Shown here piece after piece: positions 61,994 to 63,982 of a stretch of DNA of 64,000 nt; positions within the stretch are counted from its first letter, which is position 1; every line of letters starts with the position of its first letter. The position numbers and the translations under genes were made by a program. A model generated the notes under the pieces. That model was not told where the DNA came from. It ran no database searches and worked only from the letters and a program-made list of their open reading frames with translations. The DNA lies in the NCBI RefSeq assembly GCF_054482525.1, contig NZ_CM137006.1, one strand, 5' to 3'.

Positions 61994-63982
61994 ATGGCAG
62001 GTGAAAATGCTCAATTGGGCTTTTCCGTCGATACATCGGAAGTGGAAACAGCATCAAAAAGGCTTAATGAATTAGCTAAATCAGCGCAAGGGGCGGCTGA
62101 TTCGGCTGGCAAATTATCAGATTCATTTGAGGAAAGTATGAAGGGTGTTAATTCATCAATTACTTCCAATCATCAGGCTATGCGCGAATTAACGGTAATG
62201 ATGCACGAAGCAATGTCTGGTAATTGGTCGCGCTTGCGTGGTTCTGCAATGATTATGGGCGGCGCATTGGGATTTGGTGGATTAACTAGCGGTGCGGTAG
62301 TTGGTGGAATTACGCTTGTTTCGGAAGGCATTGAATCGCTAATTGAAGGAATGCGAGAAGCTCAAAAAGCAGAAACTGAATTAAATAATTCTGCTGTAAT
62401 TACAGCAGATGTAAGCCTTTTAAATAGTGATTATGTTGATTCACTTACTATTGGTTATGAGAAATTAGGCTATTCAGCAACACAAGCAAAAGGCATGATT
62501 GCAGCGTTAAGTAATGCGGGTATGTTTGGTGATGAATTTAGTGTTGCAGGTAAACAAATTGCCGCACTATCTAAAGCGTTAGGCGGTAATTCAGACGAAC
62601 AAAAAAAATTAGCTGGTCAATTTGGTGGCTTGTATTCTGACCCGCTAGGACACGTTAACGAATTTTTCCAAGTAACAAACGGATGGATTACCAAAACCGA
62701 ACAAAACCGAATTAATGCGGCTGAACAATCGCATAATTCAGCACAAGCTGAAATGGCTATGCAAGAAGCGCTATTAGATGTTTATAAGCGTCAAACCGAT
62801 ATGCTACAGCTTAAAGCCTATTTGGAAACTAACGCCGCTACATATTCAGCCTTTCAGACGCGCGAACAATTCGGCAGCGCATGGGGTAAGGGCGAAAAAG
62901 AAAAGGCAGACGCATTTATCAAGCAATATGACGAGCGCCAGCAATCATTTAATCAGGGCGTTGAAAAGCTAAAAGGAAGCATTCACGAAACAGGACGCCA
63001 GATAAGGGAAAATGTAGAAGAATTTAATAAAGGAATGCATCCCCATAAAGTGCATACACACCACGGATTAACAGCAATTGAGAAAGCAGCTAAACAATTG
63101 GTGACCTACCAAACCCAAATTAAACAGGCTGGTTTGCAATTTGACCAGCAAATTAATTCAATTGGTGATTCAGTAAATAATGCGTGGAGTAATAAATTAT
63201 ACTCTTATTCAATGTCTTCTGACCAGAATGATTTTGCAAACCGAATTGAACAAATCAATGAACAATTCGACCGTATGCGCGAAAATGTAGACCGTTTGGC
63301 GCTGCAACATCATAAATCAATTGGTTCAAAAGAATATGTTGAAATGTTCCAAAAAATCGAATTAGGGCGCAAAAACGTATTGGCTGAAAACGTTGCTGGA
63401 TTTAATGAAATGGAGTCATTGCAGCATTCAGCGCTGGCGGGAATGGATGAGGGATGGATTAAATACCAGAAGCAGGTTAATGATGTTGCAAGCCAATCAG
63501 AGAAAGTTTTTGATACGGCTGTTGAGGGAATGACAAATTCATTAACTGATTTCTTTACAACTGGTGAGGCTGGTTGGACTAATTTTGTAAAATCAATCGC
63601 AACAATCACTGAAAAATACATGGTTCAAGATTGGATTGTTGAGCCGCTAGCAGGATTAGTAAAAGGGGGGATTAGCTCGCTATTTTCATCAAATCCATTG
63701 AGTTCAACGGCTAACACTTTTGCCGTTCCCGATATTCCAAAATTGGGCGCAACTCATTTAGGAGGCGGTCTAGGTTCGACCGCACCAGTTATCAATATCA
63801 CCATTAATGACAATGGCAACAAAGGCGGCGTTGATAGCAATGTTAGCGGCACAACAGGGCAAGTACAAAAAATGGGGGCGGCGCTAGATAAATTCCTGCA
63901 AAACTATATCAAAGAGCAAAACGTAAAATCCAACCGTCAGGGCGGGTTAAACAAAACAATGGGGAACTGGTCGACAAGATAA
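61994..63982 (+). CDS. Phage tail tape-measure-like protein (lambda gpH-like C-terminus)
   Basis: 662-aa ORF, helical Q/E/K-rich body, Gly-rich hydrophobic segment (GGALGFGGLTSGAVVGGITLV), C-terminal INITINDNGNKGG...GGLNKTMG resembling the lambda H C-terminus. Confidence 0.5.
   Translation: MAGENAQLGFSVDTSEVETASKRLNELAKSAQGAADSAGKLSDSFEESMKGVNSSITSNHQAMRELTVMMHEAMSGNWSRLRGSAMIMGGALGFGGLTSGAVVGGITLVSEGIESLIEGMREAQKAETELNNSAVITADVSLLNSDYVDSLTIGYEKLGYSATQAKGMIAALSNAGMFGDEFSVAGKQIAALSKALGGNSDEQKKLAGQFGGLYSDPLGHVNEFFQVTNGWITKTEQNRINAAEQSHNSAQAEMAMQEALLDVYKRQTDMLQLKAYLETNAATYSAFQTREQFGSAWGKGEKEKADAFIKQYDERQQSFNQGVEKLKGSIHETGRQIRENVEEFNKGMHPHKVHTHHGLTAIEKAAKQLVTYQTQIKQAGLQFDQQINSIGDSVNNAWSNKLYSYSMSSDQNDFANRIEQINEQFDRMRENVDRLALQHHKSIGSKEYVEMFQKIELGRKNVLAENVAGFNEMESLQHSALAGMDEGWIKYQKQVNDVASQSEKVFDTAVEGMTNSLTDFFTTGEAGWTNFVKSIATITEKYMVQDWIVEPLAGLVKGGISSLFSSNPLSSTANTFAVPDIPKLGATHLGGGLGSTAPVINITINDNGNKGGVDSNVSGTTGQVQKMGAALDKFLQNYIKEQNVKSNRQGGLNKTMGNWSTR

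Follow-up and report, generated by a model that had tools for sequence, protein, structure and literature searches.

The tape measure gene at the end of the island

What is a gene for a phage tail tape measure protein (TMP) doing at the end of a chromosomal island that holds no other virion gene? The question is raised by a 64,000-nt stretch of contig NZ_CM137006.1 (RefSeq assembly GCF_054482525.1), the whole of which is called the window here. It contains the Escherichia coli chromosome genes ydiF, aroD, ydiB, ydiN, ydiM and ydiL, and an island of ~11.7 kb inserted in the small RNA (sRNA) gene rprA; the last forward-strand gene of this island, at 61994-63982, encodes a 662-aa homologue of the lambda gpH-type TMP. 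A preliminary description, made from the sequence, had read the locus as a deleted, defective prophage. Our analysis indicates that the gene very probably belongs to the conserved core of a small mobile element rather than to the debris of a prophage. The fuller statement, that it encodes a functional, shortened gpH-type TMP, belongs to the core of a ~12-13 kb satellite and is used in helper tails, has, taken as a whole, roughly an even chance of being correct.

The assignment to the lambda-H type, proposed initially from composition and C-terminal motifs, is confirmed by Pfam, by PHROG and by a collinear alignment with gpH, and the profile searches placed the open reading frame (ORF) in a tail family and in no non-tail family. 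The ORF starts with ATG, with GAGG located 8 nt upstream. Pfam Tape_meas_lam_C (PF09718) matches aa 480-553 with an E-value of 8e-15 and 55.1 bits against a cut-off of 23, and PHROG TMP families match aa 17-572 (best E-value 3.5e-21). In a phmmer search against PDB sequences, residues 377-554 align collinearly with residues 532-702 of lambda gpH (8iyk_H; E-value 3.6e-7), and a weak N-terminal stretch pairs residues 98-279 with gpH residues 118-296 at 10.9 bits. The two proteins also have in common a hydrophobic segment, which in the island TMP is single, Gly-rich and located at aa 84-110, and a helical composition rich in Ala, Gly, Ser and Gln; they differ in length, gpH having 853 aa.

Among genuine phage TMPs, the closest have 957 aa and are encoded by Chromobacterium prophages, within complete lambda-like tail operons in which small genes of M/L/K size and a 1,222-aa J-like gene come after the TMP gene. 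Three collinear motifs are shared with the island TMP: NAELGFSVDTSQ at the extreme N-terminus (50% identity), a second motif just before the hydrophobic segment (44%), and, as the third, the C-terminal domain (30%). Since these motifs are collinear and include the extreme N-terminus, the island protein resembles a TMP whose ruler has been shortened and whose ends have been preserved.

A compact layout shared by intact islands

As the preliminary description had observed, no terminase, portal or capsid gene lies between the integrase end of the island (53425) and the TMP gene. Searches of the island ORFs against Pfam and PHROGs gave no terminase, portal, capsid, lysis or other tail family, and no head module was found elsewhere in the element. 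Three complete genomes (PCN033, SCU-102 and 19KM1776) are essentially 100% identical to the window in the TMP gene and in the cluster of small genes before it, and the sequence past the window end was taken from 19KM1776 (locus L001). Inspection of the identical genomes revealed no tail genes downstream of the TMP gene, through the right attachment site (attR) to ydiK; the 3' side holds only one opposite-strand gene, for a 205-aa membrane-anchored protein, followed by attR and ydiK.

Such an arrangement could arise if a siphovirus prophage had lost its head, terminase and distal tail genes, leaving the TMP gene behind without a current role. A TMP homologue that stands without other structural genes fits this explanation, as does a real deletion of 1,874 bp in the integrase and primase of the window copy. 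The deletion is clean, with its breakpoint at 54036/54037 (positions 4905 and 6780 of the locus in E. coli FREC5), and it took the catalytic domain of the integrase, the Toprim region of the primase and, with them, a T5orf172/GIY-YIG-like nuclease. What is left is a truncated tyrosine integrase of ~190 N-terminal aa with its SAM-like domain (53425-54036, plus strand; the ORF continues across the junction to 54054), for which locus L002 holds an intact 401-aa homologue, and an N-terminal Zn-ribbon fragment of the primase (54037-54410, minus strand). The breakpoint was compared with 19KM1776 and with an 11.7-kb metagenome contig, which both have the same deleted form, so that an immobilized copy persists in more than one source.

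We then compared the island with its relatives, whose gene order was examined in long-contig contexts; all contexts that were opened end in the TMP gene. The same synteny with a terminal TMP gene is found at 11 loci in six genera (Escherichia, Citrobacter, Salmonella, Phytobacter, Enterobacter and Hafnia), and the common order is integrase, primase, helicase, iteron origin, C4-like RNA, Ner-like repressor, variable defense cargo, small orphan genes and TMP. Three attachment (att) sites are used across the family, with integrases of 401-405, 418 and 450 aa. Intact copies of 12-13 kb occur in Escherichia, Citrobacter, Salmonella, Enterobacter and Hafnia, and have a full integrase, a T5orf172-type nuclease, a complete primase with Zn-ribbon and Toprim, and a helicase of the AAA_25 or DUF3987 type.

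Among the E. coli members, FREC5 (island ~13 kb; TMP gene 88.5% identical in nucleotides and 88% in amino acids) and S10 are intact with a 401-aa integrase, and another lineage has a TMP of 53% identity. Citrobacter portucalensis contributes two lineages (TMP identity 67% and 38%), Enterobacter ludwigii has the same gene order with the TMP gene last, and the copy in Phytobacter massiliensis is partly decayed. Salmonella enterica uses a different att site (ybjT-like/ltaE/poxB region) with a 450-aa integrase, and in Hafnia alvei the island, whose integrase has 418 aa, lies at a third site (trmL/cysE to cpxA). A 119-aa core protein of unknown function (p119; 59819-60178, minus strand), used to define the wider family, falls into 55 clusters and the TMP homologues into 24; in both cases all clusters with a named source come from Enterobacteriaceae.

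No family member contains head or other tail genes, pseudogene fragments included. Because intact relatives have the same 12-13 kb layout without structural genes, we conclude that the compact layout is the native one and did not arise by recent deletion. Intact elements of five genera have the order with the TMP gene last, at three att sites and with TMP identities as low as 34%. In true phage relatives, genes of the M/L/K/I/J type lie directly 3' of the TMP gene; the islands have none of these. Together with the intact TMP reading frames described below, these observations make a decayed prophage a very improbable origin of the gene. The preliminary description was thus right that this copy is defective, and the part that is unsupported is the loss of a head module: the window copy is probably immobile, for a reason unrelated to missing head genes.

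Selection and recombination in the tape measure gene

All eight family TMP ORFs tested are intact, with pairwise ratios of nonsynonymous to synonymous substitution (dN/dS) of 0.14-0.40 at dS values of 0.4-1.5, which indicates that selection maintains the gene. Its sequence nevertheless diverges fast: TMP identity is 34-88%, as compared with 84-98% for the small protein p99 encoded just upstream, 90-99% for the Ner-like repressor and 75-94% for p119 in the same loci. In the family alignment, aa 1-30 and a hydrophobic block at aa 59-125 are conserved, aa 130-355 are variable and rich in indels, and the C-terminal half is conserved. The window TMP and that of FREC5 are near-identical over the first two thirds and diverged in the last third, and the comparison with the Citrobacter TMP (locus L003) gives the opposite pattern, with diverged first two thirds and a close last third. 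Segments with different histories imply recombination within the TMP gene. This fast, mosaic divergence is the pattern that would be expected for a gene whose product interacts with changing phage partners.

Two decayed relatives bear on whom the gene serves. In the copy of Kluyvera sichuanensis (L024) the TMP gene is absent and the primase split, and in a metagenome copy (L029, contig of ERZ1106949) the TMP gene is broken into three ORFs; in both, the cargo gene for a HEPN-domain protein is intact. Loss or breakage of the TMP gene while the HEPN gene stays intact suggests, from two cases only, that the TMP serves the element and not the host.

These data also bear on the main rival explanation, in which the protein is a poison or decoy of tail assembly. 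A dominant-negative TMP would enter siphovirus tails and yield non-infective or tail-less particles, thereby protecting the host population or hurting the helper, and would not be needed for transfer of the island. TMPs are known targets in tail-assembly defenses, namely Tab (PMC10884400) and Rta of PLE11 (PMC12987554), and Tai systems on phage-inducible chromosomal islands (PICIs) block tail assembly (PMC11364771). The TMP gene lies near cargo of defense type (HEPN, PIN) and shares a 46-nt element with it, its fast mosaic evolution is like that of arms-race genes, and no cognate chaperone or tip genes for a complete tail pathway were found. Against this explanation, PADLOC gave no defense-model match for the TMP, the HEPN protein or neighboring proteins; in the two decayed copies the TMP gene is lost or broken and HEPN is kept, the opposite of what a host-beneficial gene should do; and the protein has the full collinear TMP layout with both termini rather than being a truncated fragment. 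Overall, we consider a poison or decoy function unlikely, though it is a competitor to be taken seriously.

A satellite-like backbone

If the TMP is a core gene of a mobile element, what kind of element is it? The left part of the island (integrase fragment, primase fragment, p108, helicase and a 50-aa protein) is oriented leftward except for the integrase. The conserved 108-aa protein p108 (54355-54681, minus strand) is 82-89% identical in the family and contains an AlpA-like segment, with no match in Pfam or PHROGs. It is followed by a 500-aa AAA_25 replicative helicase (54698-56200, minus strand; Pfam AAA_25 1.8e-23, and PHROG helicase-primase families) and by a 50-aa AlpA/excisionase-like protein (56248-56400, minus strand), the first gene of the leftward replication operon, which is assigned by motif resemblance only and has no family match. 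A 44-nt direct repeat of 84% identity (54461-54504 and 56297-56340) corresponds to paralogous AlpA-like coding segments in p108 and the 50-aa protein.

Repeat analysis revealed nine ATTCACC iterons flanking a GC-rich spacer (56752-56920), a putative replication origin located after the leftward replication operon and before the C4/Ner module. The iteron motif recalls the TGTTCACC iterons of P4. A C4-type antisense/immunity RNA (57137-57225, plus strand; Rfam RF01695, 65.8 bits against a gathering score of 45) lies directly upstream of the Ner-like gene; it is kept in five other loci, and every family member that was checked has it. The loop of this RNA, UUUUGUUUGUUUG, is matched by an exact complement at 57087-57099, 40 nt upstream, an arrangement that resembles the P1 c4 system and the CI immunity system of P4. 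The C4 family (P1/P7) also resembles the CI RNA of P4. The Ner-like HTH_35 repressor has 83 aa (57237-57488, plus strand; Pfam HTH_35 5e-31, PHROG_769), and downstream of its gene is a strong intrinsic terminator (57496-57524).

The integrase and att repeats, the AlpA-like proteins, the primase and helicase, the iterons, the C4 RNA and repressor, the size, the cargo hotspots, and the lack of capsid, terminase and lysis genes together give the island the profile of a PICI/P4-type satellite. Integrase with att repeats, a replication module of its own, and a size of ~10-15 kb without capsid, terminase or lysis genes are all present. We infer the satellite lifestyle, the siphovirus identity of the helper and the incorporation of the TMP into virions, and the following course of events may be envisaged. 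During replication of a siphovirus helper with a lambda-like tail, the island would excise and replicate in its turn, and would express its rightward operon, which runs from p51 to p99 and on across the 46-nt element to the TMP gene. The island TMP would then enter helper tail assembly, replacing the helper TMP or acting alongside it, and give chimeric tails of ~100-105 nm (662 aa at 0.15-0.16 nm per residue) that the satellite DNA would use; for the 711-aa alleles of the family the predicted length is ~107-114 nm. Such tails could favor satellite transfer, for example by escape from exclusion or defense systems that target the TMP, and could handicap the helper.

Several observations weigh against this proposal. 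First, a packaging or capsid-redirection function is missing from the satellite profile: no homologue of TerS, small terminase, Ppi, Rpp, Sid, Cpm, Psu or Delta was found with Pfam and PHROGs, and cos/pac sites are not searchable without a known helper. Second, the TMP itself is divergent. Its TIGR01541 score of 82.2 bits is under the equivalog cut-off of 104.75, so that the protein is related at the level of the domain, not as an equivalog. The N-terminal domain of lambda H, PF06791 (TMP_2), which the nearest phage relatives possess in addition to the C-terminal domain, was undetected in the Pfam search. Among 50,697 phage records and plasmids, no TMP resembles the island TMP at either end, and only the ~90-aa C-terminal domain finds matches, at ~32%. 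A helper search by TMP similarity in phage, plasmid and viral-contig collections returned only distant relatives or relatives from non-enteric hosts, and identified no helper. Finally, few E. coli strains have the family (5 of 5,426 complete genomes), no circular, excised or encapsidated form was seen in viral and metagenome collections, and the sole IMG/VR match is a predicted prophage region of an isolate genome. A metagenome contig of 11,727 bp (L027), considered as an excised circle, was rejected, as it proved to be the island in its integrated state, broken at the two att repeats and flanked by chromosomal sequence.

The same gaps could be taken to mean that the island is an integrative replicon and not a satellite, with a TMP-like protein that acts outside the virion, for example at the envelope or membrane by means of its hydrophobic segment and long helices. 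The lack of a packaging gene, a cos/pac site, a helper or virion evidence is in line with this, as are the missing PF06791 and the TIGR01541 score. On the other hand, all detectable homologues outside the island family are bona fide phage TMPs in tail operons; the backbone of integrase, AlpA-like protein, primase, helicase and C4 RNA in 12-13 kb with defense hotspots is a hallmark of PICI/P4-type elements; and no conjugation or mobilization genes were seen in the island. We therefore judge a non-satellite replicon to be rather improbable, less so than prophage decay, and retain the satellite with its own TMP as the favored interpretation.

A hairpin element in front of the tape measure and cargo genes

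The 46-bp upstream repeat that the preliminary description had attributed to both the TMP and the HEPN genes is present as two exact plus-strand copies: one at 57706-57751, ~100 nt upstream of the HEPN cargo gene, and one at 61912-61957, 36 nt upstream of the TMP start codon. The copies lie within a 61-nt pair of 89% identity, and the number expected by chance is 0. Every family member outside Hafnia has kept the element, with one to three copies per island (one in the decayed Kluyvera copy), and a pattern search found none in the Hafnia island. The copies stand before the variable cargo, before the TMP gene and, in some members, beside the integrase; they are on the sense strand of the surrounding genes, except for nuclease-side copies in Salmonella. 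In these positions the element marks the 5' edge of each variable module. The third copies (L004:293 and, on the minus strand, L025:17793, L008:1648 and L011:1136) either precede an extra 145-aa cargo gene or, inverted, come after the nuclease gene, so that all variable modules are bracketed by the element.

The element contains a hairpin, GCCCC-GNA-GGGGC, that is kept via compensatory stem shortening in three copies, with loops that vary among GTA, GCA, GAA, GCAA and GTCA. It has no Rfam match, and no copy outside the islands was found in viral, genome and metagenome collections, helper phages included. A sigma-70 promoter for the TMP gene was considered and is implausible for the TMP copy, as the sole hexamer pair places the -10 hexamer on the start codon. 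When the C4 RNA was paired with the element in RNAduplex, self-complementarity and flanking sequence dominated, and a 9/13 match is apparent by eye only. We infer a regulatory role, in which the element could act as an RNA hairpin to which p99 possibly binds, as an activator-dependent promoter or as a processing site; it could also be an anchor for recombination.

Upstream of the TMP copy lies the element-specific rightward cluster p51, p104, p94, p128 and p99 (60288-61852, plus strand). Three of its products, p94 (60895-61179), p128 (61170-61556) and p99 (61553-61852), form one set of paralogues with the corresponding proteins of other members. Their common small domain has an N-terminal YGVF / FxW strand, and models show a strand-strand-helix-strand core followed by a long C-terminal helix. 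The C-terminus of p99 is arginine-rich (KQERQRRDARHMRRFGF) and reminiscent of RNA-binding arginine-rich (ARM) motifs, and the gene is located immediately 5' of the conserved hairpin. A p99 profile has only seven relatives among 1.84 billion cluster representatives.

We also considered whether these proteins correspond to the tail assembly chaperones that accompany gpH. The p99 gene is in the -1 frame relative to p128 with an ATGA overlap, and a G/GT-type frameshift was considered, but the A-run is interrupted in loci L003 and L010, and ordinary translational coupling is favored over programmed frameshifting. Fold searches with the upstream small proteins gave nothing significant and no chaperone fold. 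In view of the lack of both a significant fold match and a conserved slippery site, p94, p128 and p99 are not called tail assembly chaperones.

Taking the hairpin and the island family together, we tentatively propose, at somewhat less than even confidence, an undescribed family of enterobacterial satellites in at least seven genera, inserted at rprA and two other att sites, whose sole virion gene is a fast-evolving, mosaic lambda-type TMP swapped into helper tails, and in which the TMP and the defense cargo are co-regulated via the 46-nt hairpin, possibly with p99 bound to it.

Island boundaries and cargo

The left boundary (attL) has as its core a 71-bp direct repeat at 53337-53407, located by repeat search, that constitutes the 3' part of rprA (Rfam RprA match at 53336-53456, minus strand). 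Its 71-bp partner attR, read from the identical genome, is at the window-equivalent position 64978-65048, ~1 kb past the window end and just before ydiK. The rprA gene on the attR side (L001 22984-23091) is a full copy, scoring 118.8 bits in the equivalent loci L002 and L019. The attL-side match reaches only ~80 bits because the 5' part of the gene is replaced by island sequence. With these boundaries, rprA is an addition to the list of sRNA genes that serve as integration sites; a literature search returned no paper on an island at rprA or on this island family.

The cargo gene at 57850-59001 (plus strand) encodes a HEPN-domain protein of 383 aa with the invariant R-x4-H motif RSKIVHG, and occupies a variable position, another gene having been swapped in for it in the Salmonella members. 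Opposite to the TMP operon, a variable lipoprotein of 147-155 aa with lipobox LTGC (59289-59756, minus strand) is a plausible candidate for a moron of the superinfection-exclusion type. A second cargo hotspot is located between the TMP gene and attR. It holds the 205-aa membrane-anchored protein in the window strain (L001:22051-22668, minus strand), in Citrobacter L003 and in Phytobacter. In E. coli S10 and Kluyvera its place is taken by a PIN-domain protein of 381 aa (L019:16361-17506, minus strand, and L024:7317-8462), and in FREC5 the hotspot is empty.

Relation to known satellites

The closest precedent is the Vibrio cholerae PLE, whose TMP, ~20% identical to that of the helper, replaces the latter in chimeric tails, makes these tails shorter and is required if transduction is to be efficient (Mathur, Boyd et al., Nature 2026, PMC12987554). 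Both elements are small and integrative, have no capsid genes and encode a TMP distantly related to phage TMPs. There is, however, no sequence relationship between them. The PLE TMP matches the myovirus helper ICP1, whereas the island TMP is of the siphovirus lambda-gpH type; the PLE has a recognizable tail assembly chaperone and baseplate hub, for which the island has neither a detected homologue nor a detected fold; and the island backbone is PICI/P4-like, with a tyrosine integrase, C4 RNA and Ner.

With Gram-negative PICIs and P4-like elements the island shares its size of 11.7-13 kb, an integrase next to att, a leftward operon of AlpA-like and primase/helicase genes, an iteron origin, a small immunity RNA of the processed type and variable positions for HEPN/PIN cargo. 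It differs in having no detected Sid, Psu, Delta, TerS, Ppi or Rpp, the resemblance to AlpA is one of motif only, and a TMP as sole virion gene is outside the definition of both families. Some cfPICIs and EPIPs are also reported to carry tmp genes (PMC12987554; bioRxiv 10.64898/2025.12.02.691453), the EPIPs with altered tail lengths, but in cfPICIs and in the EPIPs of Mycolicibacterium these accompany capsid, scaffold, adaptor or terminase-small-subunit genes, none of which is present in the island. Finally, the lambda H gene has a G/GT frameshift pair upstream and M, L, K, I and J downstream, and the island TMP gene has neither. The island is accordingly not a PLE, a P4-like element or a cfPICI, and conforms only to the general backbone of a satellite.

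For annotators, the locus illustrates that a lone "phage tail tape measure" gene near an integrase is not necessarily a prophage scar. A satellite-encoded TMP was shown only in 2025-2026, for the Vibrio PLEs. If the proposal presented here is correct, the islands would be a second, unrelated family of TMP-encoding satellites, in which the question of why satellites encode a TMP could be addressed by standard genetics in E. coli, Salmonella and Citrobacter, and a minimal case, in which a lambda-type TMP acts alone with no obvious chaperone or hub. The natural allelic mosaicism of the TMP gene in this family could then be used to map its specificity determinants.

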